From Podarcis cretensis (taxonomy: Eukaryota): a stretch of 64,000 bases of DNA. The translations under genes and the position numbers were made by a program. A model generated the notes under the pieces. The model was not told the origin of the DNA. It saw only the letters and a list, made by a program, of their open reading frames with translations, and ran no database searches. Below, piece by piece: positions 223 to 22,200 of the stretch. The stretch spans positions 50,654,001 to 50,718,000 of the forward strand of contig OX638150.1 in NCBI GenBank assembly GCA_951804945.1, in the 5' to 3' direction. Every line of letters begins with the position of its first letter. Position 1 is the first letter of the stretch.

Positions 223-783
223 CATCTGCTTGTCGTACTCGTCCTTCAGGGCGACGACGCTGTGGCTGCTGTGGGAGCCAGTGGTGGAGCAGGCCTTGCA
301 AACACACACCAAGTCGTCTTGACAGAAGCATTCCAGCAGCATGGCATGCTCTGGGCATTTCTTCTCCTCCTGGGCCCCAGCGGTCCCAAGAGCCACCAAG
401 GCATGGTTCTTCTGGGTGGCCTTCGAATTGTGTTTCCTCAGGTGGTCCCGGCACAGGGACGCCTCACAGGTCAGACACTTCTTCTCCGCTGAGTGAGGTT
501 TCCCTAGGCAGAAATCGCAGGGAATCATGATTCTCCTTTCTTTGAGCTTCCAAGGAGGCTTTTCCTTCTGAGGAGGCAGTGAGAAACTGGCAGCTCTCTG
601 TTGACAACCTGGCATGAACCTTGAACACAGGGTAGGAGGTGCTGGCTTTGGACTCCTGCACTGTGTTCGGTATGCCCTGGGCAGAGTCCTAAGAGAACTC
701 CTGCAGCCCCAGCTCAGGGACACAGGACGGCCATGTATGCTGTGTGTCACCATGTTCCAGCAGGTGGTTGTTTCAAATTCCAT
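223..783 (-). CDS. TRIM-family protein, first coding exon (B-box1 + B-box2; TRIM16/25/47-like, no intact RING); gene continues off the left edge
   Basis: Translation contains CDFCLGKPHSAEKKCLTCEASLCRDHLRKH (B-box type 1) and CPEHAMLLECFCQDDLVCVCKACSTTGSHSSH (B-box type 2), then a coiled-coil start (LKDEYDKQM) ending at a phase-0 donor ATG|GTAAGG at 223/222. Acceptor ttcttacAG at 849-850. Start is ATG 783 (gcaATGG) or ATG 528 (atcATGA). Confidence 0.8.
620..750 (-). pseudogene. Vestigial (decayed, frameshifted) RING-finger coding sequence of the TRIM gene
   Basis: Frame A reads VTHSIHGRPVSLSWGC (cf. LTCSIC...PVSLxCGH). Frame B reads F-S-*-D-S-A-Q-G-I...S-Y-P-V-F-K (cf. FCxxCI...SCPxCK). The Cys positions are single-base changes (TCT, TCT, TAC, TTC), with a TAG at 689-691. 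Confidence 0.55.
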
Positions 784-1386
784 TGCTGTCTCTCTGCCAT
801 GGATCCAAAATCCATGCAGAGCTAAGCTCCAATTCAATGAAAGGAAACCTGTAAGAATTTTATTTTTATTTAAAAAAACACATTCCCATGTATTTGGCAC
901 AATAGATTCAGCTCTTCCAATGAAGATGTCTACTATTTTATTTATATGGTGGGTTTTTAAAAAAATTTAAGATTTATACCCTGCTTTTTGTGGAACTTCC
1001 TCCACAAGTGACTTACAATCTCCAAGAAAACCAACTTAAATACAATAGAAAATAAAAGAAAGCACAAGGCACTCAAGCAATAAGGCAGCATACAAACAAT
1101 TCACAAAACAAATCCAGGAAACCTTGCATCCAAGACCCTTCATTAAAATCAAAGTGAAGAGGTAGATTTTAAAGAATCCAGTTTTATCTTTGTGTGGTTC
1201 TACAGAGTAGAGAATCCTATGCATGTTTTGAAAAATACTTTGTGCAGGCACCTATGGTGCTTTTATCAAGATAGGAGTATCAGCACTTCATTTTTGACCA
1301 AATATTATTAATTATAATTGTATTGTATTGTACTGTACTGTGGCCCTCCCTTCACTGTAAGATCCCGAGGTGTGTTACAGCATCTG

Positions 1387-1436
<50 letters not shown>
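1387..1436. repeat. (TCTA)n microsatellite
   Basis: About 12 tandem TCTA units seen directly. Confidence 0.95.
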
Positions 1437-1648
1437 ATCTGTTTCTTAAATTTGTATCCCACTTTTCCAATAGCATGCTCAAAGGCAGATCACAAAATAA
1501 AAGTGACTAAAGTGACTAAATTGCTATACAAGACAGAAAATTGAGGGTTGGCACTTTGTGACATCAAGTGCTTATAGCCAGACATGGCAAAACAGTAGTC
1601 CTTGGGCCCTCCCTCTGTGTGAAGAAAAGTGTAGAAGACTGCCTCTAC

Positions 1649-1839
1649 CTTTGGGTCCTTGCCCAGGCTGCTTTCCTGGATGCCCTTATTTTAATGGGTC
1701 TGCCCGCATAGAGTAAGGCGAAATCAGCCACCCTCATGAGAATGCTAATAACCGTGTCCCAGAAATCCTGATTAGGAAGCATCATGCCTAGCAGAGCCTG
1801 TGGGAGCTTCACCCAGAGAGACTGCAGAGGTCTGCACAC
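1649..1839 (-). other. Possible non-coding 5' exon of the TRIM gene
   Basis: Acceptor-like gttttacAG at 1840-1841 and donor-like AAG|GTAGAG at 1649/1648; splice signals only. Confidence 0.2.
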
Positions 1840-2071
1840 CTGTAAAACATGATAAGTGCATATGCAATCCCCACACTGCATTTGTTTTGCTGTTTTTTTA
1901 AAAACATACACTATATGAGAGAGCTGAGGTTCCGAAACTGTGGTCTGTGGACCACCAATGGTCAGTAAGATTCATTCAGGTAGTCCATAGTATGTCTGTA
2001 AAAATACAATTGAAAATACATTTGAAAATCATACAGTGCTTGCAATAAGCTTCCTGAACTGGGGTGGGTGG

Positions 2072-2712
2072 GAAATAGAAAGGCAATGCGTTTTTCCCCT
2101 TTCTGACTCCTTCTCTTTAGTAACTACATGCTGGCAAAGTACCGGTAGATTCCTTCCTGCTTCTCCCAATTCAAGCTTGTTTTGAGTATGAGCTAGTGGG
2201 TACTAGTGTTCACTTCCTGGCTCCATCCTGTCCGCATGCAAAACCTATGCAGTACTTAGAATGGCTTTGTTTGCCATGGGTAATAACCAGCAGCCTTGAT
2301 GGGCTATTCCTTTCTGCACATCGCTGCAATATATTTGCTAGACTCCACGGATTTGGAAGTGGAGCAGAGGTGTGCAGGAGCACCCTGCTGTGCAAGCAAG
2401 AGTTCTTATGCTGGCTTCTGCTAGCACACCAAAGTATTTGATTCTGGTCCTTAATGCCTAGAGAGCAGAGGGGTCTGAAATGAGGATTTTTGCACATGAA
2501 CGGCATTTCTGAAAATATCTCTCACAATCGCAAATAAGGACAGGGACCAGAACATAAAGAGAGTCCTGGTAAATAGGGACACTTGCAAGATACAATTTCG
2601 CACATTTGAATGATTATATCATTTCCTTTCTACCCACTGTTACTTACTCACCTGGGGGTCTCCTTAAGCTTTCTGCTACATTTCCCTTTCCCTTTCCTTT
2701 CCTTTCCTTTCC
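2072..2712 (-). promoter_or_regulatory. Candidate TRIM promoter/first-exon region with IRF/ISRE-like motifs
   Basis: GAAATAGAAAG at 2072-2082; ETS-IRF-like CCAGGAAGTGAAC (minus, 2208-2220); GGAAA/GGGAAA array (minus, 2681-2712); strong donor CAG|GTGAGT at 2652/2651. Confidence 0.35.
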
Positions 2713-3010
2713 AACACTTTTATTCTGCAAATAACAACTGGCTCTTTCTTCGCATGCCCACACACCTCCAAAGTACTCCTTCATCCTGTTAGCAGAATAA
2801 TAAGCACACCAAGTTCCAAGGCTGCGTGGAGTTCCAAGGCTCCGAGGGTTTTGTGCGTACAGTGACAATCCCATCCCCCTGGGGATTTGCGGCATGACTG
2901 AAGCATAAGTGCAATTTAGGAGCAGAAAGCCACCCAAAAATGTACACACAATTCCACACAGAGTTGCAAACAAGCAGGACATGTTGGACTTCATAGTATA
3001 TTTGTTATGA

Positions 3011-3020
3011 TTTATTTATT
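3011..3020 (-). terminator. PPARGC1B: Probable PPARGC1B distal polyadenylation signal (overlapping AATAAA x2)
   Basis: Plus-strand TTTATTTATT gives AATAAATAAA on minus, followed by a GU/U-rich downstream element (ttgtttg...tgtgtggaattgtgtgt, ~2940-2975) and preceded by AU-rich UTR-like sequence. Confidence 0.6.
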
Positions 3021-4160
3021 TATAGGCAGATCACTTCACTATTTACAGTACATGAATGTAGAGATTCTACAGTCTTTGTGATGTAAACAAGTAACTCCAC
3101 GGCAGGGGAGTTTCAAAAAGAAGCCAGTTCTGAAGTATTTACACAATTTAAAATAGAACTTTTATATACCTACCAGATAGATATAGAGAATACATTGAGC
3201 AATTTGGTTAAATCATCTACGAAACTATAGAATCTGACAATGTAAAAATACAAGAAAACGTTCTCTCATTTAGAAGGTAGACATTGAAATCACACTAGAA
3301 AGAAATATTTCTTTTAAAAAATGACAATAACAAAGGAAAGGCATAAGAATCTATGCCGATTAAGGTTAAAGTATATTACATAAATAAGGACACAACAGAA
3401 CACAACTGGGGGGAAATTAAGTGAAATATAAAAATTTTCTACTATTTTTTTTTAAAACAGTGAACTAAAAACTTGATTTTATTGATTACAAAAGGGGTCA
3501 ATCCTGCTGCTTTTACTCACCAAGAAATAAGTTATCACTTAGTTAATACATGTAAAAGAGAAGCAGAATTGGCCCCTTCTAATTATTAGCAGTGTCCTCT
3601 TCAAAAAACAAAAAAAGTAAAATCTAGTTTTTTATTATAAATAACATAGCAAATGTGCCCCTCTTTTAGGTGAAATTCTTACACCTTTCTTAAGAAATGC
3701 ATCAATTTAGTCTCCTTCACTCTCTCTGGCTCACATACACTCATAAACACACGCTGCAAACAGTGGTATTAATTCACTCTTTTTCACTTTTCCAATAAAT
3801 AATGCCACCTAAAGCACCAGTGGCTGCATTAAAACCAGACTCTCCAGGGGTTTGCCTTGCTATCCACATCAGACATAGTTTCCTCCATGAGGAAATGGGA
3901 AACGTTTTGACTTTTTTTAGGGGGGGGGCGACAAAAACCTTCAGTGTAAATTGACTCTTCAAAAATTCAGTAGGCTAATCTAGTAATACAGGTGCATTTT
4001 TATGCATATAAAGCTCTGTGAAAACTGGCCTACCCATTCTCTTCAATTTTGTGTAAAGCTTTGAAAGACAGAATTCTGCCATAATGAAGACTATGGAGCA
4101 ACCTTATTTCTTTCTCTTTTTTTGAGCTCCATTTGCTCATTGGATCACAGCCTAGGTAAT

Positions 4161-4292
4161 GGATTGGGGAAACCTGTGACCTTTTGAATGTTGTTGGGCT
4201 CCAACTCCCATCAGCCCCAGCCAGCATGAACCATGGTCATGGATTATGGGAGCTGTACCCCAATAACATCTAACAGCACAGGCTCCTCCATC
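4161..4292. mobile_element. Palindromic ~130-bp hAT-type MITE (degenerate copy, within 3'UTR)
   Basis: Core ...ctccaactcccatcagcccc...ggattatgggagctgta... shared with other copies in the window. Confidence 0.65.
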
Positions 4293-7200
4293 AATGACAT
4301 GTGCTATGCATTCCAAGGACAGAGAACCCAAGTAAGGCTGATGCATTTGATTTAGTCTGCCTCACTGGCACAAAGTTTAGGGTGACAGCAGGATACCATG
4401 ATAAATTCACCCAAACCAGATTGGATAGCTTGCTCCTTAACACTAGGGCATAGCCGAGTTTTCACTGAGATTCTGCACATAACCTTTTCCCACGACATGG
4501 TCATTTTTCAGGTGCAGGGAGCGTACGGAGATGCGTTCAATCATGTGAGCCCCCCACCTGCAGTCAGGTGGCAAGCTCAGATGCAGATTGTTAGTGATAA
4601 CCTCAGTCACAGAGATCCCGTCTCTAAGTTGCATGACATGCAGCAATGCTTGTGTACTTGTTTTTGTAGCATCTATCCTACATTACAACACATTAATTTG
4701 TTAGAGCATCATAGGTGCTCACCTCTAGTGCATTTCTGTTGTCCACTATTAATGGTAGACTTCCAGCTATAAAATGCAAAATGCATAAGCCCCCAGGTTA
4801 CTTTGGGGGAGGGGGCGCACTGCCCCCTTAAGTGCAAGGAGGTACCTGCAATCATACGTACATGAAAATGTTATGGTTGGGCGAAAAGTCACGTTAAAAT
4901 GATGCATGGGCATCAGTGATGTGGGGGAAATGATGCCAGGGGAAATTGTCAAAAAGCACACAAATGAGAATGAGGCCTAAACAAACAATTATTTGCAGAA
5001 TGTTGATGGGAAAGCAGAAGGCTTTGAATGCTCATATTGCTAAAGTGTGTCACAAATAGACTACCCTGCTGTAAGAACAAATTGAGGAAATGCTCAGCTA
5101 CAGATTAAGGACTTGCTATTTTCATCTGGCAAATGAAAATCAAAGTGTCCTTGCTCTCTGATTCCTCTAAGGCTTTTTGACATGGGCTACTGAGAAAATT
5201 GGATGCTAATCATGGAAACACATGACCAAGCTGACATGAAAGTTTCATGGAGGTAGTAGCAAAGCTCAAGACAGTCACTCTGAGAGGGAACGTGGGATGA
5301 ACATTTCCATCGACTGACAATGAAAGTGACGTTTGGGAACCCAGTTCTTCTGCATGCACCTTCTTTTTCTGATGCCTGCATTCACTCCTTTGTCTGGTTG
5401 CTGAATTTAGCAGGAACCATTTGCGTTTCACATAAAAGCATGGTTATTTAAAGGACCAAGGGCAAGGAAATGGCTTATGACTTATTCCTATCGTTAAGGT
5501 ATTTTTCCTAATTAAGAAGCAGTTAGGAGGGACTTCTTTTTCACTCACACATATCCACACGCACACCCCTACATATAATATAGAGATAGTTCTGCTTATT
5601 TAAAAAAATAAATGTCTCCCTCATGATTGCCTTTCTCAACACACCCTCTTATTCCGAAACACCCTGGAAAATTGAATTCTTTTAATTTGTTTATTTGGTT
5701 TCTCACCTGATCTTGCAAAGGCTTGGTTTGTTTCTGCTGCTAATCGTTGTTATGGCTAGGCCTACCCCTTGGGTACGGGGTCCTTGGCTTTATGCATATT
5801 ATTAAGAGAAATAATATGGGAGAAAGTTAGGCAGACTTCGCAGAAGTATACGGAAAGCACAGGAGCCCAAGCTCTTTCTAAACAGGGCAGAGGAAGTAAC
5901 CATTAAGGTAATTAAGGTCCTTCTTTAGCTAATGGGGGCAGGGGACCCTCGGCTACTCTTCTTAGCCTCAACGTGCGGCCACCTTGGGAAATCAAAATGA
6001 GCTGAACTGCACCAAGGTTTAAATCTGCCCAAACATGTTGGCGGCAGTGATGGCTATAAAAATGTGTAAAGCTCATTTTAATTCCCCCAACCTAAATAAG
6101 GAACAAACTTCCTTTCCCCCTTTTCATCTCCAACCTGTGCTTCAAACTCAGCAAGTGAGGGGCTTCAGGCTGAGGAAGTGAGCCTTGTGAGGGACTGCAC
6201 CATGGAACTAGCTCCTCGCACACTAGTGGTGGTGACACTCAACTGCTGATGGCTTTGCTGGTTCCCTTGTGCACCACACTGACCCCCGACTACTGCCTCA
6301 ATCCTCCTGAAAGCAGCAGGCCACCCAGCTGGTGGGAGGTCAGGGGTGGACTGCCACCCTACCACTGTCCTCACAGTATGAGCAAAATGCCTATTCTGTA
6401 TTATAGGCCAGGACTGTGGAACCCACCAAGCCCATCACAGTATGCCAGCCATCTACGGAGGCCTGCAAGACACTTTGTCCCCTGACCAGGCCTCTGGCAG
6501 GCTGGTAGTTAGGCAAGCCACAAGTTCTGTAGATCTGTTAAAAAGGTATCCACCCAGCTGCTCTGATTCGTGGAGATGAACTAGGACCTCCAAGTGGTCC
6601 TTCCGATTCCTGTGCCATTCTGAACTGAGTTTTGGGGTTTGTTTTTTTCACCAGCAGCAGCTCAAACTACTTCTTGCAGTGCATGTGGAGCACAGCAGCT
6701 TGCTGCTCTACGAAATAGAGGACCCTCCTGGAATATACCCTGAATACAGGCTTGCTGCCTAAAATTCTCCCATCCATATGGAGCAACTTTCCAAGCTTCT
6801 GATAGCCAAGGGTTTTTGCACTGTTTGTATCCCTGTGGCTGATACAAACTTAGCTGTGCTTCCAATAGCCATTAAAATAAGCCACAGGTTACTAGTGTGC
6901 CACAACCAGCATTAGATGTCCGTGCTTTTCAAACCATACTACTCAGGCTCTACATTCAACAGTGGTGGATTTACAGCTGCTGCTCTGTACCCAGCAGCAG
7001 TCAGAGGGGCTCAATGCCCCGCCACTACCTTTTCCCTATACATGTGTGCGTTTGTGCACATGTGTGCATATTGCATAAAGTCCTAGCGAAATTTCTCACA
7101 AAAAATTAAAATAAATATTTTTATAGGCTTCAGGCAACACAAAGACCACTTATTGCACCTCTCCCTATATCTAGGATTGAGAGGCCATGTGCGTTACAGG

Positions 7201-9070
7201 ACCTTCTTCTCTCCTCAAAAGAGCATGCGTGTGCATGCTCTAACATCATTGGTAAGTCCAGCCTCTTAAAAGTAACTTGAGATAATAATAAAAAAAACTG
7301 ATTAAATACAAACCCATGTTTGCAAGCGATCTGCACTGAAGGCAGCTCTTTCTGGAGAGCAGAAGGACTCTTCCTTCTCCTCTGCAGCTGCATTCAACAC
7401 TTTCAGCATGCTCAGAAATTTGATGCATTTTCCATCTCTCTGACCAAAGCCAGTGGTGAACTTTGATCTATCCTTGTAACCAAGCCAGGAGATGGAAGAA
7501 TTCCACTTAACGGTTGTAGGGGTGGTTACTTATTTTTCTTCTTCTTCTGTTCGATTGTTCTCTGAAAACATCAGCACAGCACAGGACAGGACAGGACAGT
7601 CCTACCCACCCTAAATGTGTCGCTAAGTACATTCTACAGTAAGCTCTATAGCAATCACATGTAAACATCATTGTGGTGAGGAAATACTAGGACAGAAAAA
7701 GGCAGAGCTACAATGAGGCACTTGTCAACAGCAGATGCTTTGTCTGGGCCAGACTTTGCTCTGGGCTGATCATGAGAGGATCTTGCGATCCATCAGTAAG
7801 TTCTCGAATGGAGGTGGTGCAAGCAACATTGAAGCAGCCAATATTGTGAGGATGATTTTCTTTTTTTCTTTTTTTTGACCAACAACACATGAAATTGTGA
7901 CATCGGTTACTATATAAAATAAGCACTGTTGTTATTAAAGCTCCACATTAAAAGACGGAAACAATCACATAATTAGTATAGGATAACACATGAGTTAATG
8001 CCTTGATCTCATTCATGGTGTTTCTGATGCATGTGGTCCTTACTGGCTCAATGGAATTACTCAAGACAGGCAAGCAGGAGTTAGACCTAAGCCAGGCAGT
8101 TGCCAAGGTCTTTGGCAATTTCTTCCTTTTGATTCAGATTAAATACCTGCTGGACGAATTAAGGTTGTTGCATTCTGTATACATGGGGTGGCTAAATGCC
8201 AGAGATCTTTGTGAAAAATAAACCAAAGACATGATGGCTGATGAAGGTATTAGCAAGGTTATTTGGTCCCCACTTGAAAATGCTATCACTTGATGCATCT
8301 GCTGGTTTCTTGGTCTGCCTCTCATGTCCCTGGACATTGCTTCCAAGTATAGCACGAGAACAGCCATACTGCATGAGGCATTAGCACAGTATATTGTGGC
8401 AAGTCCGAGCTATGTTTGAGTGAAACAATTGTGGAAGTTAGATAGCGACTCCTTCCCACTACTCAGTCTTCTGAGCTAGAGGCTTCTACACTGCCTCTGT
8501 CCCAGCACCCCGGTTCGTATCAAAGAGCCCCTAAACTAGTTGCTTAAATCACTCTAAGACTTCCTTTGTAATTACTCAAACTTCTGAATCTGAGAGAAGC
8601 CAGGGGGAGGGCACAAGATTGCCGCCAAGAGGAAGTCAAAAGGAACATCAAATAGGCAGTGACATCCACGCCTTTCTTGACAGGGAGCAGGAGAAAGAGA
8701 GAGAAGGGAAGTCGCTTCACAAGGCTTCATAGCAATGACACTATGTTTTATGGCTTATTCCACTCATAAGGAGAGTAGTGTTCAAAATGGAGCAGGGACA
8801 ATCAGCTGATGAGCCATGTGCTATGTGCCAGCTGTAAACACTGTGAACTCACTCAGCCAAAGGTGTGAGAATTCCTATGAACTTTTTTTCTGTTGGGTGT
8901 TGCCCACCAGGCAGGAGATTTTGCTTTGGTTAGATGACCAGATGGGTAAAAAACTATTCCTGAGGCTACTGGTGATGTCATGTATGGCCTTAAATGAATT
9001 GCTCCACATTCCTCTACCTCAAACTCCCACATGGATCTCGCGAAACTGCAGCTGCTATCATTAGATGGTA

Positions 9071-9426
9071 CAGTGGTGCCCTGCAAGACGAACGCCTCGC
9101 AAGAGGGAAAACCCGCTAGACGAAAGGGTTTTCCGTTTTGGAGGTGCTTCGCAAAACGAATTTCCCTATGGGCTTGCTTCGCAAGACGAAATGTCTTGCG
9201 AGTTCCTGCGGGTTTTCCCCCCCTTTCCCCCCCTTTCCCTAAGCCGCTAAGCCGCTTATCAGCTGATCCGCTGATAAGCCGCTTATCAGCTGATCCGCTA
9301 AAAGCCGCTAAACCGCTAATAGCGCTAATCCGCTAAGCTGTCAATGGGCTTGCTTCGCAAGACGAAAAAACCGCTATACGAAGAGCCTCACGGAACGGAT
9401 TAATTTCGTCTTGCGAGGCACCACTG
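9071..9426. mobile_element. Tc1/mariner (pogo/Tigger-like) MITE, full length
   Basis: TA target duplication (9069-9070, 9427-9428); 22-bp TIRs CAGTGGTGCC(CT/TC)GCAAGACGAA; CpG-rich; second copy at 25641-25967. Confidence 0.9.
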
Positions 9427-9708
9427 TAGATGTAATGCAAAGAAACTTCTGGGTATAATTGTTCTGGGATTGGCTCTCAGACTTTCTCAGTCTTGCTGTA
9501 GACTTGTGCTCCTGCGCTACTGGTCACGATGGCTATATGGAGCTTTCAAGTTTAAAGTTAAAACGCCTCTTGAGTAACAGTTGCTGGAGAGCAAACAAAA
9601 GGACTACTGCCTTCATACATTGCTGGAGAGCATCAAAAGGAGAGGACTATTACTTTTTAGGAATCTAGTCACCCATGGCACAAAACAGAATGCTTGACTA
9701 GATAGGCA

Positions 9709-9786
9709 TTTGTTCTGATCCAGAGAAGCTTTTCTTTGTTCTGATCCAGGGGAGCTTTTCTTTGTTCTGATCCAGGGGAGCTTTTC
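9709..9786. repeat. 26-bp tandem repeat x3 (TTTGTTCTGATCCAGGGGAGCTTTTC), likely the duplicated tail of an old LINE/SINE 3' end
   Basis: Three head-to-tail copies (9709-9734, 9735-9760, 9761-9786) preceded by cagaatgcttgactagataggc. Confidence 0.85.
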
Positions 9787-10685
9787 TTACGTACCATTTC
9801 CCTGGCAGGTGGGGCTTCACTACCTTGTGACCACTGTCAATCCATCAAGGGGCAGAGGGAAAACACACTCTACCCTTGCACCCTTTTTCTCCCTCCCCTT
9901 CCTCAAAAATGCACCATCTGAGAACGCCATTCCTATCCACCCAGAGCCAGCTCTGGACTGAGGAATCACAATGTGCCTTGTGCCATCAACAAACAGGGCA
10001 GTGGTGATCCCAGAATTCAGCCCAAACGAAACGGAACAAATGGCTTATATAGCAAGAGCACAACATCAGTCGGTCACCCCTTGGTTTGCCATGGACAGGG
10101 CTGAAGCCAATTTCAACTGAGTGGCCAATTGGAGGGCACCCTTTGGGGAGGGCCACATCTGCTGACAGGCAAGTGCCTCATTACAGTGCATAGTTAAAAA
10201 TCAAGGAAGCGGTACAATAAATCTGAATTACAGTACATCTGAGCCATAAATACATTATAAGTATATATTTCTTTCTTCTATTAAAAATTAGTTTACAATC
10301 CTGATTCTATTCACAATTAACAATTTCATCATCACACACTACAGACAAAAAAAAAAGTTATGGTGAACACAGCTGCAAATCCACGGCGGAAGTGGGTAAC
10401 GGGGGGGGGGGCAGAGAAAGGGGCCGGACAAGAAGGGGACAGGAGGCTTTTGCAGGCTCATCCTAACACAACCAGTCAGAAGCAAAGATACTAATGTGTG
10501 GCAGTGGAACATCAACACCATGGGGACTCACAGACAGAAGCAGCTTGTTCAATGTAAACATCGATTTAAAGGGACAGCAGTCTCTCTCTCTCTCTCGTTG
10601 TGTACTTAATCATTTCTTTGAAAACGTAAACATATTGGAAGTGCCTTGACTGAGGTATTGAGGTATTCCTCAAAGGTTAAGGCTG

Positions 10686-10789
10686 TTACCGATGTAGGCT
10701 TTCCTGGGCCTCCTGCAGCAGGCTGTCGAAATCCATGGTCTCATATTTGCTTTTTATCAGAGCTGGGGAGGACTCTTCTGTGTTGGAAT
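10686..10789 (-). CDS. PPARGC1B: PPARGC1B exon 12 (terminal coding part)
   Basis: (D)SNTEESSPALIKSKYETMDFDSLLQEAQESLHR*, the PGC-1 family C-terminal DFDSLL motif; acceptor accAG at 10790-10791; TAA at 10686-10688. Confidence 0.96.
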
Positions 10790-14013: not shown

Positions 14014-14900
14014 CTGTTTGATAAACAAGAAGACACATGAATTTAGTCCTGAATGGACTCTGGCTGGTCTGAGCGCTAGAAACCACAAGGTATTAGAGGC
14101 ACAATTGTTGCTTGCAGGGACAGGCTCACAGCACAAAGAATGCTGTGTCTGCAACAGCAGGCTTTCAAAGACAAATGCCAGCATCCAGCATAAAAAGGAG
14201 AAACGGCAAGGCATCAAATACAGGGGGGAAAGGGTGGACAGAAATAAATTTGCAGAGCCTAATATGTTTCAAAATTCTTCTCCATGCTTAGGTACAACCA
14301 ATTTGAGTCTTTGGCTTCCAATTCTGATGCAAAAGGTCTTATTTCTGCCCACCTGGATGTTTCTTCCCTCTTTTTCCCCTTCTATCAAGAGTATTTCTTC
14401 TGCAAAGGGAAAGGCTTGAGACATTCAGACAAGGGGCTGGCAATCTAGTGGAGCAAACTGCTAATGGAAGGGGAAAGGAGATTGCTCCCTCCAGTCTCTT
14501 CTGCCACTGCCCAGGCTGTTCCCGAGGGTCCTCCAACTTTCCAAAACAGATATTCAGGGGATGCAGAGGAGAACTGGCAAAAATGGCTTCTGCTACTTCT
14601 GTGAGAGGTCCTGTGAGTGAAACTTCGCTCACAGGGATTTCTGGACCCACCCAACCCAGTCTCTTTCAGAGTAATTGTATTATCTATAAAGCAGCATGGA
14701 TGTGCACGGCACCTCCTGGAGAAACATAAGCAAAAAGTCAGCACCTCTGTCAGAGGGCCACCTGTAAAGCAGTAGCTACCATTGTGAGGGAGCCGGTAAA
14801 GACCAGCCAATGCAACCCACTACAATTTTGCTCACCACTGGTCTCTCTGAGCCCTTTCGCCAAAGACCCTGTGAACTCACAAATGTGCAGAGAAGCCCAC

Positions 14901-15672
14901 CTGCTTGCTGGAGACCTGGACCTGCAGCACGAAGACTCAGAATCAGACCTGCTTCGGGAGCAATAGTGCAAACTGGCCCTGGAAAGAGGGTTCTTGTAGG
15001 GGCACATCTTGGATTCCAATGGACTTGTGCAGCACTCTTCCTCCTCCTCTTCTTCCTCCTCCTCCTCCTCTTCCTCCAGCGGGGAACCAATCTCACTGCA
15101 GCTGTCCTCAAAGACGGTGTCATATTCAGGCGTCTTGCTGAAGGCCGCCTCCCCGGCATCGAGGGCACTGTCCAAGAGGCCAAAGTGTTTTGTCAAGCTG
15201 GCCCTGATCTCCTGGTCCCTCAGCTGCTGGCTTCCCTCCTTCACTGAGGTCCCATTGACGCCCTCCTGACTCTCGTGCTGATAGTGCACATCAGGGGCTC
15301 TCCGCTTGTGTTTGTTTTCCACATGGCTCAGGGGCTCCCAAGATTTCAGCACCTTCCTCTGGAGTGAGGTCTCGGGCTTCAAGACCTGGCAATAGTCGTG
15401 GTCACCGAAAGAGCGTGAGAAAGGGCGCTTCAGCACCCCATGTGGCTCGGGGTGGGGCAGGTGGGGGGTGGACCGACTCAGGTGTGCGTACAGCTCTGTC
15501 CGCACCGGGTGCTTCTTCTGCTTCTTCCCGGAGGCTGCCCTGTCCCCCATCATTGGCTGTGGCTCAGAGCTGGTGATGATGGCAGTCTCCTTGGCTGGCC
15601 TCTGGTGAATGTCTGGCTTATACAGGTCCTCCTCTGAAGGCTTGTATGGTGGAGTAGTTGGTGGTGTGAGAC
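14901..15672 (-). CDS. PPARGC1B: PPARGC1B exon 8
   Basis: (G)LTPPTTPPYKP...SFGDHDYCQ (HCF-binding DHDY)...LRDQEIRASLTKHFG...E14 tract (15035-15076)...SRSRS; 772 nt; phase 1 to 2. Confidence 0.95.
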
Positions 15673-15807
15673 CTTATCTCCCCCAAGGAAGCAAAAGGAT
15701 AAAGGTCTTTCAGTACAGAAGCATGAAAGTTAAAACAAACAAGAAAGCTGCCTTGACAAGGGGAGTTAGACTTGTTCCCTCATTGTACACCGCCACATCT
15801 GTCAAAC

Positions 15808-17904: not shown

Positions 17905-18090
17905 GGAAGGGACAGAGCTCAACCGAAGAGCCATGTGCCTTGCTTGCAGAAGGAGCCAACCCACAGTATCTCCAAGTAGGCCTGGAAAAGACCTGGAAAG
18001 CCACTGCCAGACACTGTGGACAACCCTGAGCTGCATGGCCCATTGGTCTGGCTCAGTATAAGGCAGCTTTCTATGTCCCTTCCCATGTTC
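17905..18090 (+). mobile_element. tRNA-derived squamate SINE (Squam3-like), degenerate
   Basis: ...ttgcagaagg...atctccaagtagg...ggtctggctcagtataaggcagctttctatg; same family as 32113-32306 and 44434-44613. Confidence 0.65.
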
Positions 18091-18120
18091 CCCATACGTC
18101 CAGACTCTTACTTAGGGTAC

Positions 18121-19279
18121 CTGTCTGATGCAAAAGGGTGCAGCACTGGCTCTCGCTTATCTCACATGCTTCGCTCTCCCCGGAGCTCTCTGGTGAGGGG
18201 GTTTGCAGCTCCATCGGGAGACTCTGATACCTGTCCTCTGCCTCTCCTGCACCGCTCACTTCGACCTCTGCTGCTGGTGCTTCCCTGTCAAAGTTCTGCA
18301 GAGTGGAGGAGCACAGGGACAGTTCTGGGGAGGCCACTTTGTTTTGAGGGGGTGTGGCCGGATCAGGGGGAGAATCGTCAAGGAAGGAAAGCCAGAGACT
18401 GAGCTCAGGGTTGAGTCTTTTGGAGCGCCGCACGGCATAAATAAAGCTCTCCTGCTTGCGGCCTGCCTTCCCAAAGGCCAGCTGGGGCCGCTTTGCACAG
18501 TCCTCCTCCTCCTCCGCAGGGCCGCCGGTCTCTTCCTTCACCTCGGGCTCCGCTTTGGGGCCCTGCCTGGGCTCCGTTTTCACCTCTGGTGGCATTCTGC
18601 CCGCGGACTTGCATGCCTCCATGGATCCCCCAGCAGCCTCGGGTGGCGGAGCTCCTGGAGCCTTGGGTGGCTGCAACCTGGTCAAGGAGGCGTATGCAGG
18701 CTTGGCCAACCGGTAAGGCTTGCTCACATCACACGGGAGGTCCCTGGCAAGCAGCTCCTTCAGGATGGAGAAGCTGGCTGCGGGGGCTCTGGGCTGCTTG
18801 CAGCCCGCTGAGAGGTGCCAAGAGCTGGGCGGGCAACTGTCCTTGCTGCAGAGCGGAGGCCGCTGCAGGGGGCAATCTGGCTTGGCCCTCTTGGAGGGGC
18901 TGTGGAAATGCTGGTGTCTCGCATCGGCAAGGTCTGTGGGGGGCAGCTTTCTGGGGGGAAGGCAGTAAGTGTGCATGTAGCGGATGAGCTCCACAGTAGC
19001 GTGCAGCTCCTTCTCTCCGGTGCCTTCCTCGGAGGAAGACGGCGGAGTCGCTGCCATGTTGCCGCAGGGCAGCAACTCTTCACCGGAGTCGCTGTCCTCT
19101 CCATGGTGGGCGCAATATCTCTGGGGCTCCGTGCCGCCACTGTGGCACTCATCCGGCGGCCAGTTGTCCTTTGTGTGTGGGCAGTGGGCAGTGATGGAGG
19201 TGAGGTGCTTATGAAGCTCGGTGCAGCTCCGGCTCTGAGCCTGGAGAAAACTCGGCTTTCGGTCTCGGACACCGTCCAC
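18121..19279 (-). CDS. PPARGC1B: PPARGC1B exon 5 (large exon)
   Basis: VDGVRD...QSRSCTELHKHLTS...VELIRYMHTYCLP...FSILKELLARDLPCDVSKPYRLAKP (LxxLL)...VRRSKRLNPEL; 1159 nt; phase 0 to 1; alternative donor at 18112. Confidence 0.95.
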
Positions 19280-22200
19280 CTTCAAGAGCAGAGGGAAATG
19301 GAAGTTAGGCTAACCCAGAATGAGTTTCTTCCCAGCCACACCATATACAGAGAGTCCTCATCTCCTCATCACATTCCATGTTTGGTGGTTACAGTAAGCA
19401 ACTGCAGCAGATTTCTGTAGAAATGTTTACACCCCAGAAGATTTTATGGAATCAATAATCTACTGTATATGAAGAACTATTCAGCCTCTTCTGTGGTTAC
19501 CCTGGTAATTTATCAGTTACATTTCATTAAATGCCTATAGGATCTGTCTGATTTAATTTTATAAAGCAACTACTTGTACTCTGTGTAACTTATTTGTTCT
19601 CATCTACTTTCAGAGAACTTGCAGAATCTGGCTTTTTCGTGTCAGATTCTAAGGTAGTAAATGAAGGGCCTTGCATCCAAGCCACTAAACTGTATTTGCC
19701 GTCTTCTTCTTCTTCCTCAGCAGTCAGTTTTTTGGTAGCAAGCACCAATACTACTTTCCAGTAAAGGTTGATGCTTAATGCAAGCCTCACTCTGCCCTGT
19801 GTTTCAATTCCTGTTAAGCTGACTGAGCAAATACTGTGGGCATTTATCAGATGATGCCTTTGACACCACTAATAATGAGGGGAGCATTTGTTACCACCAT
19901 GGTCAAGTAGGCCCTTGCCCTGCCTGAATCAGAGAAGAAAATGGATGATGAAAACTTATCTACCTATGCATGGATCTCTGCTATCTCTCAGCACAAAGCC
20001 TATGGCATATGTACACAAGCTAAGTAATGGGAGGACATGCCCGTTCTTTAAGAATCACATATAAGAGTCATCTGTGCACAACTTGAAGAGAAACAGTAAA
20101 AGCTGGGTGGAAGGTTAAATTGATTCCATCCTTATCCTCCTATGTTTGTGTATGTGTAAGTATAACAGAAGAATAGGAGGGATGTAACCTGTTGAGATGC
20201 AGAGCCTTGTTCCTTAGTGAATGCCCTGGGTAGGAGAAATCAAATGAAGATTTGGGGAAGCTGCTGGAAGCTAATGCAGGGTTTAAAGAACTGGGCAGGA
20301 GAGATGAGAAAGGAGAGGATGTATGTACACTTTCAACAGCTCCTTTCAAGAACTGCACAGAGCAAGAGAGATCAAAGGGATTCTTCACACCCCTTGCATC
20401 AAATTTATTTCTAGCTGCTGTATGTGGCAAATAGTATTGATTTGCCTCCCCATTCTTCCAGTTGGCATGGAAGGGTCACTGTCTCTCTCTTTCTCCACCC
20501 CCCCTCCCCACTTAGCCCTGCCTTTCCCATGCAATCTAAATCCACTTGCCTAATGCACTGCACAATTTCCATCACCCAAGTGGAAAATCTTTAATGGCAT
20601 CTTGTGTGGATTTCAGGGGATTAGTTTAAATGACTGGACTGGTTCTGCAACTTTACGAGTAGCTCTTTGCCCAGCTAAAGTCAATTCAGTCAGCTGCTGG
20701 GAAGCTCCATTCTAATTTGGGGTCAAGGATGAGAGTGAGAGAGAAGAGGGGAAAGATCATCATGACAAAATTTAAAGACGAAGGGAATCTGGGGAAAATA
20801 AAGAGGCTCTTTGTACACCGCACTCCAAAGGGCACACAGATGAAAGCCTTCTTGTTTTGAGAAGGCTCACTCTGATATCACTACCAGTGTCCTGTTTTTT
20901 CTCTCTCATCTCTCCTTTAACCCAGGTATGGCCAGCTTCTGTATTCATGGCTCTTTATTCCTGCTACGCAACCCAAATTCCTCAAGGGTAGACAAACCGT
21001 ACAAAACAGTGGATTCCACCTGTCAGTACTGGTCTCACAGTTTATGGAGCATGTCTGCCTGGACACCGTAGCTAGGGCACTACTACAGTGGCCCGATGTG
21101 AGAGGACAGGGCTCCTGCAACATCCATAAATGTGCATGACAAGCTACACTGGCTGAAATTCCCTCTCCAACACCACCATTAAAGGGCACAGGAGCCCAGA
21201 TTTCTTTTGCATCTAGCTGCCCTAGCTGCTTTCTTCACATCCCCACAGAGAGATATAAATAACGAAAAGGTTTTTTTTAAAAAAAAATCCCTTGCCTCTT
21301 GATAAATTTAGAAAGAAAAATAAAATCTCTATGAGTGAGACTAGGGCAAGCTTTTTTAAACCACCCCTTGATTAACATTTGGTATGTTCACATGGGACTG
21401 CATAAAAATGCATGATGGCCTGTCAATGGATGACCTTTGGCTAAATAATAAAGATTTGAAGATCCAGGGTACCACCTCAATTTTAAAGGACAACAGTGAC
21501 AGTAAAAAACCAGATTTAAGTCAACATGACCAAGATGCATTGTTTTTGCTTAAAGTAGTAAGCAAAGATCTTGCTTAGCTAGGCCAGGGTCCTATCATGC
21601 ACCCTAAGTAGGGCTACTCCAATGGCTCACTTGGATGCTCCAGGTAGTACAAGATGCAACTGAGTCACCCGCTGGCCCTCTGGTGCCACTGCCCCAACAG
21701 CTGCCGTTAGTTCAAACTGCTCTGATGACACACATAGGTCACGGCCATCTCAGTCCAAGTTCCACATGCATTTAATGGGAGATCAATGCCACCCTCACTT
21801 TGGGCAGCATGTCATGGGCTTTCAAGCCCCAACTTCTGAATGCATCTCAATTAAATGATCGATGGAGGCTCTGATGTGCTTGAAGCACTGTGGCCAAACA
21901 TGCACAAGAGGGCCTTTTTGACTGTGGCACCTTGGTTGCACAAAAGGCCTGCTTGTCTACCTCACTGCTCACCTCCTGGCACACAACCAACCCCGGGCTT
22001 ATTCAGGAAAGGTTGTGAGCTGATTAAGGCTGCAGTCCTATATACACTCATCTGGAAGTAAATCCCACTTTCTGAGTAGACATCACCATGATTACACTGG
22101 TAAGAGTGGCCATGGGAACTATTTTTGCCTGCTACAACTTTTTTTGTTGGTGAAAACATTGTCACCACTTTCTGGTTTTATTGGTGAAGTTAAGCCGTTA

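Follow-up and report, generated by a model that had tools for sequence, protein, structure and literature searches.

A RING-less TRIM gene of Podarcis, orthologous to TRIM211, with the relic of a RING finger in its first coding exon

The locus and the gene model

The DNA analysed here (the window) is a stretch of 64,000 nucleotides from Podarcis cretensis, located at G000:C2:50.65 Mb, and it carries on its minus strand the first coding exon of a TRIM gene. Read from an ATG at 783, this exon spans positions 223 to 783 and encodes an 85-aa extension across the remains of a RING finger, followed by two B-boxes, in agreement with the 400-aa Podarcis RefSeq models. B-box1 (400-519, minus strand; PF22586, E 9e-6, with a score of 26.1 bits, slightly below the 27-bit cut-off) and B-box2 (250-372, minus strand; PF00643, E 2.9e-8) contain all their ligands. 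The GT splice donor comes directly after position 223, at 221-222 on the minus strand, and is used in a spliced contig from a relative (run X1). The initial annotation, made from the letters of the window, had described these ligands and the donor as preserved, and this proved right.

Eight further coding exons were recovered to the left of the window, from G000:C2:50652555 down to 50645601. The resulting model has nine coding exons, eight introns that are all GT-AG, and 400 codons with zero stops, and the predicted protein is identical to two Podarcis models at 388/400 and 390/400 residues. The rest of the nine-exon frame is free of the signs of a pseudogene, with neither stops nor frameshifts and with every splice site retained, so that the plain pseudogene considered in the initial annotation was not borne out by the downstream exons. 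The product has the B-boxes followed by a coiled coil and is missing an intact N-terminal C3HC4 RING. Neither PRY nor SPRY was detected by Pfam in P0001, the database protein that stands for the window protein, and the C-termini of SPRY-bearing relatives gave zero tblastn matches in the 80 kb downstream. The gene is thus a RING-less, or incomplete, TRIM, with B-box and coiled coil, an open frame, and a transcript seen in a relative only.

The gene follows PPARGC1B on its 3' side and precedes SLC26A2. The upstream exons that end near 10.7 kb are those which we take, from their sequence, to be PPARGC1B. These PPARGC1B-like exons extend over about 10,690-35,223 of the window, on the minus strand and thus on that of the TRIM gene, and end ~10 kb upstream of it; they include large exons at 18074-19309 and 14753-15673 and RRM-like exons near 13.4, 12.5 and 10.9 kb. 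The assignment agrees with the duck locus described in PMC10445537. In duck, a TRIM sequence is annotated within the PPARGC1B 3' UTR, which makes read-through possible. A GATA/TAGA tetranucleotide microsatellite is found at 1385-1440 of the window.

Sulfate-transporter genes are located 27-52 kb downstream of the TRIM gene. They are two tandem genes (L016-L019, G000:C2:50,602,000-50,626,700), one SLC26A2-like and the second more distant, and they fit the slc26a2/slc26a12 pair (PMC11145369). A turtle record, P0179, is a TRIM fused to SLC26A2, and the nearer transporter of Podarcis is 82% identical to it.

Orthology and copy number

Two squamate proteins, XP_028573400.1 and XP_042303456.1, are listed as TRIM211 by Campbell, Peery and Magor (2023, PMC10445537), and both fall within the clusters of the window protein. 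According to that paper, TRIM211 belongs to the TRIM25 cluster, is found beside PPARGC1B, has no published function and is filed under the C-IV TRIMs. In contrast to this class assignment, PRY-SPRY, the C-IV hallmark, is missing from all turtle, bird and lizard TRIM211 orthologues that we found. The downstream PRY-SPRY exons expected in the initial annotation are therefore not only missing in Podarcis but were already missing from the turtle and bird orthologues. A loss of the RING in lizards is not mentioned in the accessible text of PMC10445537. The gene also appears as LOC416147 in chicken, as 'TRIM25-like' at NCBI and as 'TRIM29-like' in lizards.

A tree was computed from 32 B-box and coiled-coil sequences, with the RING left out and P0001 (388/400 identical) representing the window protein. 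The squamate sequences form a clade with support 100/100, and squamates, turtles and a SPRY-less bird clade group together with support 100/99. Three crocodilian rows fall outside this TRIM211 clade, as do the bird paralogues that have a SPRY. One unit that the tree does not contain, the third TRIM in a fused model from alligator, bears a RING and looks like the true crocodilian orthologue. P0196 and P0207, more distant relatives, have the layout RING-B1-B2-CC, one of them with a degenerate SPRY-like end, which suggests that the family originated as a full RING-to-SPRY protein.

Orthology to TRIM29/ATDC was considered and rejected: the nearest relatives are RING-bearing TRIM211 proteins, in a tree that does not contain TRIM29 itself. 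The genome has a separate locus at G000:C15:23.9 Mb, 38% identical in the B-boxes, which from its sequence is a better candidate for TRIM29, and another at C2:39.56 Mb that is presumably TRIM16-like. The NCBI label 'TRIM29-like' reflects likeness of layout, not orthology.

The coiled-coil exon has at least one match in the genome, and only one was found. With the turtle N-terminus as query, none of the matches (at least 117, partial stretches of 27-47% identity) stood out as RING-like. SPRY-bearing tandem paralogues like those of birds and crocodilians left no trace between TRIM211 and PPARGC1B (window 850-10,700), TRIM211 being the sole match in a tblastn search of 144 kb. By these searches TRIM211 appears to be single-copy here. 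Elsewhere in the genome, at G000:C2:108-121 Mb, dozens of RING-bearing TRIM-like loci are densely clustered; this is probably the MHC-linked TRIM expansion described for lizards.

The RING relic in the first exon

A nucleotide-level profile was built from 25 turtle, bird and crocodilian N-termini. On the minus strand of the window it matches 740-615 with 48.1 bits; none of 300 shuffles exceeds 24.8 bits, and none of 396 window tiles exceeds 27.4. The relic (615-740, minus strand) covers ligand pairs 2-4 of a RING finger and contains a net +2 frameshift near 701-705. A frameshift-aware alignment at the protein level reached 42.2. This signal beat all 200 shuffles (36.6 at most) and fell short of the top value among 224 window tiles, 47.5, and the nucleotide-level profile was therefore used. 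In that form, the frameshift-aware comparison with turtle, bird and crocodilian relatives places the relic above both shuffles and window tiles. Pfam gave no RING family match in any frame of the relic, and the first CxxC pair of the RING could not be aligned to the window.

The relic is composed of two blocks, and the proposal that RING fragments are spread over different frames was confirmed. The first block, PVSLSW (709-726, minus strand), is in the B-box frame, and its Cys position reads TGG (711-709). The second is a stretch of 29 codons (617-703, minus strand) in a shifted frame, colinear with the turtle and bird RING core, in which the His and four Cys positions are altered; FS*DSAQGI and SYPVFK lie in one frame here, differing from that of the B-boxes. 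CAG (703-701) now stands in place of the His, and TCT (694-692), TCT (685-683), TAC (634-632) and TTC (625-623) occupy the four Cys positions. These codons had been presented as single-base changes from given Cys codons; each is indeed one second-position change away from a Cys codon, while the choice between TGT and TGC as ancestor is a matter for outgroup DNA. The reported TAG stop is present at 689-691 on the minus strand, in the ancestral RING frame.

On both sides of the relic there are further, fainter matches. A putative remnant of the linker between RING and B-box1 lies at 560-588 (minus strand), where 41 of 2000 shuffles reach the score and the gecko-like record described below matches too. 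In the leader, 800-751, the alignment score is reached by 43 of 2000 shuffles, so that leader and linker each have p about 0.02. The leader begins with a probable ancestral start, ATG 800, which now opens, as first described, only a 17-aa out-of-frame ORF (747-800, minus strand). That an ancestral RING was lost from this gene is, in our view, almost certain.

Distribution and history of the loss

The RING motif is found in 0 of 24 squamate records from 16 species (annotated proteins on this side, not DNA) and in 108 of 113 non-squamate matches, a set that takes in the paralogous bird clade and in which the five exceptions include four models beginning inside the RING. The squamate records come from geckos, a skink, a cordylid, an amphisbaenian, lacertids and iguanians; that of Lerista is 5'-partial, and one isoform begins in the coiled coil. 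Together with the 48.1-bit relic and the intact frame, this bears out the central proposal of the initial annotation, that a RING-bearing TRIM became RING-less in place. Its view of the loss as peculiar to one lineage has to be given up, all squamate orthologues found, geckos included, being without a RING.

Among the matches listed (17, and 120 of 337 in a second listing), no tuatara, snake or anguimorph orthologue was named. TRIM211 may have been lost or have diverged in snakes and anguimorphs. With no tuatara or snake record identified, turtles/archosaurs on one side and crown squamates on the other are the only limits on the timing of the loss.

The N-terminal extensions of other squamate records give some insight into the order of events. 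That of Anolis sagrei maps on 683-532 of the window (40.5 bits, 0/1000 shuffles) and leaves Phe and Leu as the sole options for the last Cys, provided that Lys follows; the peptide had no direct match to the outgroup profile (921/1000 shuffles as high). The Sceloporus extension matched neither the window nor the outgroup profile (702 and 120 of 1000 shuffles, respectively). The extension of a gecko-like protein aligns with 682-536 (53.6 bits, 0/1000 shuffles) and also matches the outgroup profile (27.5 bits, 0/1000 shuffles), the match running in three phases. In this record the penultimate Cys is kept in frame and FCKE can be encoded in a shifted frame, the phase shift across the FCKE block being identical to that in the Podarcis gene. 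The frameshift near 700-711 is thus the foremost candidate for a first hit common to both, although this is read from a back-translated peptide and may be a coincidence.

A targeted erasure of zinc ligands was also considered, the relic retaining 0/6 ligands and 14/29 other residues (p=0.033, post hoc). It was rejected in favour of later decay, because two of those Cys are retained or encodable in the gecko-like record. For the same reason at least two of the Podarcis Cys changes postdate the split of the geckos and do not qualify as the cause of the loss. Geckos diverged from the remaining squamates about 200 million years ago (PMC12262214).

A single loss in early squamates is likely. The RING may also have been lost several times independently within squamates, a course eased by RING-less isoforms already present in the ancestor. 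The Cys changes at 694-692 and 634-632, absent from the gecko-like record, point in this direction, as do turtle and stork isoform models (P0039, P0040, P0092, P0166, P0182, P0185) that begin at a Met within the final Cys pair of the RING; going by these models, RING-less isoforms may be older than the squamate loss. We consider repeated loss unlikely, given that none of the 24 squamate records has a RING, that the gecko-like record and Podarcis share the FCKE phase shift, and that the last Cys is gone in Anolis too (Phe or Leu, compared with TTC here).

Transcription and start codons

Contigs of run X1, from a relative and presumed to be RNA, join six of the eight introns, and a loose end matches exon 9. 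One of these contigs runs from spliced exons through 222-963 of the window, which places the relic within the transcript. Two raw RNA runs (tissue unrecorded, 12% read) gave almost no coverage of the exons and one junction read. Among the runs listed as containing the sequence, none is recorded as RNA, which carries no weight for or against expression. The expression check is thus positive in the spliced contigs of a relative and nearly empty in the raw runs. The gene is not a pseudogene, as its nine-exon frame is open and a relative has spliced contigs of it.

A dying gene might still be suspected from the broken RING, the decay of B-boxes in some lineages, the few reads in the two RNA runs and the premature stops reported at the duck locus (PMC10445537). 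Against it stand the open 400-codon frame with its canonical splice sites, the spliced contigs, and a C-terminal two thirds that is 69-83% identical between geckos and other squamates; this explanation is already largely refuted and scarcely credible.

Three ATGs that the initial annotation had overlooked (783, 753 and 615) share the B-box frame, and a single frame is open across the relic. Most squamate protein models start at a Met right before B-box1 (526-528, minus strand). As this Met is also present in an alligator copy and in 7 of 101 non-squamate matches, a newly gained start codon before B-box1 was ruled out; a fallback start may have been ready at this place ahead of the RING loss. 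An upstream non-coding exon was discarded as well: the loose end of the X2 contig that suggested it maps to contig C18, making the contig a chimera. A possible acceptor at 850-849 is read through unspliced by the X1 and X2 contigs.

Could the relic have been kept for a job of its own, be it as a newly acquired N-terminal extension or as a 5' leader whose uORFs tune translation? Some 200 million years on it can still be aligned, it lies inside a spliced contig, and three out-of-frame and three in-frame ATGs precede 528. Yet ATG 800 is ACG in a relative's contig (X2, place 799), the length and frame of the extension vary by lineage (85, 30, 0, 63 and 76 aa), and the X19 substitutions, 5 in 320 nt of relic compared with 5 in 252 nt upstream, give no sign of constraint. 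Such a role is very unlikely.

Conservation and predicted structure

Identities were compared by domain in an alignment of 16 sequences, on which the statements on B-box1 ligands rest as well. Between geckos and other squamates they amount to 49% in B-box1, 50% in B-box2, 69% in the coiled coil, 77% in the L2 helix and 83% in the tail motif. The corresponding values are 81%, 34%, 71%, 88% and 86% between lacertoids and iguanians, and 68%, 59%, 53%, 34% and 8% between turtles and birds. Squamate constraint, as judged from the alignment, is highest in the C-terminal 75 residues, which comprise the L2 helix and a squamate-specific tail. A search of the protein atlas with the tail gave no match of 0.9 or above.

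Ligands of B-box1 are lost in geckos (four records) and those of B-box2 in iguanians. The two intact B-boxes of the Podarcis window, which the initial annotation had treated as a conserved feature, are hence a local state. This bears on the idea, speculated for RING-less TRIMs on the basis of the resemblance between B-box and RING (PMC2533329), that the protein is still an E3 ligase in which a B-box has replaced the RING. Every squamate lineage with a full N-terminus does retain at least one largely intact B-box, but a catalytic site should stay conserved, and B-box1 has decayed in the four gecko records and B-box2 in iguanians, so that we regard a B-box ligase as highly improbable.

For the Lacerta orthologue, AlphaFold2 predicts, in the monomer, a long helix at 91-227, an L2 helix at 240-271 and a low-confidence tail (pLDDT under 50). 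A homodimer model reached a score of 0.64, the best of three controls being 0.00; it is antiparallel, at least 89% of its contacts recur between runs, and pLDDT is at least 81. In calibration, the mark for a dimer was reached by 21/30 microbial homodimers and 0/23 monomers, and among eukaryotic proteins by 17/29 homodimers (7/16 in animals, 1/7 without a solved relative) and 0/30 monomers. The best solved match over B1-B2-CC-L2 is the TRIM25 coiled coil (4cfg, E 3.9e-12), and with this structure already solved the dimer pass may be a reproduction of it. Within the modelled dimer, the tail contacts the partner chain through residues 273-286, 289 and 293. The tail may therefore be structural, and it could be either a cap or a binding surface.

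The placement of TRIM211 in the TRIM25 cluster (PMC10445537), the match to TRIM25 as best solved structure and the hetero-interactions proposed for incomplete TRIMs (PMC2533329) would suit a dominant-negative decoy, a RING-less protein that heterodimerises with a RING-bearing ligase of the TRIM25 cluster and blunts it. We found no RING-bearing sister copy in the genome and thus no obvious partner, TRIM coiled coils heterodimerise chiefly with close kin (PMC12115990), and the best-conserved part is L2 with the tail, not the coiled coil alone. A decoy is accordingly quite unlikely.

Proposed course of events

Taken together, we favour, with a probability of roughly 0.6, a joint reading in which the first exon holds a RING relic in a gene whose frame is open, the RING was lost once in early squamates, and the product is a ligase-dead dimer that scaffolds through its C-terminal segment. 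The first hit would have been a frameshift at the Cys-x-His stretch of the RING. Translation would then have shifted to the Met already present before B-box1 or, in Podarcis, to the in-frame ATGs 783/753, and the relic would afterwards have decayed neutrally as leader sequence. The protein is predicted to be a ligase-dead antiparallel homodimer with the L2 helix and the tail at its centre. In TRIM25, PRY-SPRY sits at the centre of the coiled-coil dimer (PMC12115990); in lizard TRIM211, partners would be scaffolded at that place through L2 and the tail. A role as scaffold or regulator is likely, judging from the architecture and its conservation. An immune role would follow from the family placement only.

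A bolder version sees a switch from ligase to adaptor in stem squamates ~200 Myr ago, by which TRIM211 became a squamate-specific innate-immune regulator with a new, acidic and hydrophobic C-terminal motif. The RING would have been shed and, in one lineage after another, the B-boxes, while the new motif would have arisen where PRY-SPRY once sat and become the best-conserved part. We hold this version as tentative and rather doubtful. If it is true, the turtle and bird ligases could serve as living controls for a replay of the switch from enzyme to scaffold.

Comparison with known systems

The origin of RING-less TRIMs by domain loss is established (PMC2533329, PMC3503706), and the loss in TRIM211 brings no new type of system to light. 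In the literature on TRIM211, squamate TRIM RINGs and RING loss or relics that was searched, subscription papers falling mostly outside the scope, we found no report of this loss.

The RING-less TRIMs of mammals include TRIM14, TRIM16, TRIM29, TRIM44 and TRIM66 (PMC2533329). They have in common with lizard TRIM211 a B-box and coiled coil without a RING, but lizard TRIM211 is not orthologous to them. TRIM29 shares its layout of B1-B2-CC and an unclassified tail, whereas TRIM14 and TRIM16 retain the PRY-SPRY that lizard TRIM211 is without. TRIM25 is an E3 ligase of the layout RING-B1-B2-CC-PRY-SPRY; lizard TRIM211 has neither its catalytic RING nor its substrate-binding PRY-SPRY, and the likeness lies in the antiparallel dimer predicted for the lizard protein. 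The squamate harbiTRIMs (PMC12262214) are reptile TRIM genes as well, yet these antiviral ligases have RING and PRY-SPRY, are multi-copy and are located beside a Harbinger element, whereas TRIM211 is apparently single-copy and has neither domain.

What distinguishes lizard TRIM211 from the mammalian RING-less TRIMs is that its RING DNA is still readable and that RING-bearing orthologues are available for comparison. The route of the loss can be read, as lacertid, anole and gecko-like records have RING DNA left in exon 1, and the RING-bearing orthologues persisting in turtles, birds and crocodilians make the gene a dated natural experiment on the passage from enzyme to putative scaffold. The lizard-specific C-terminal segment, in which conservation is concentrated, is the obvious place to seek a new function.
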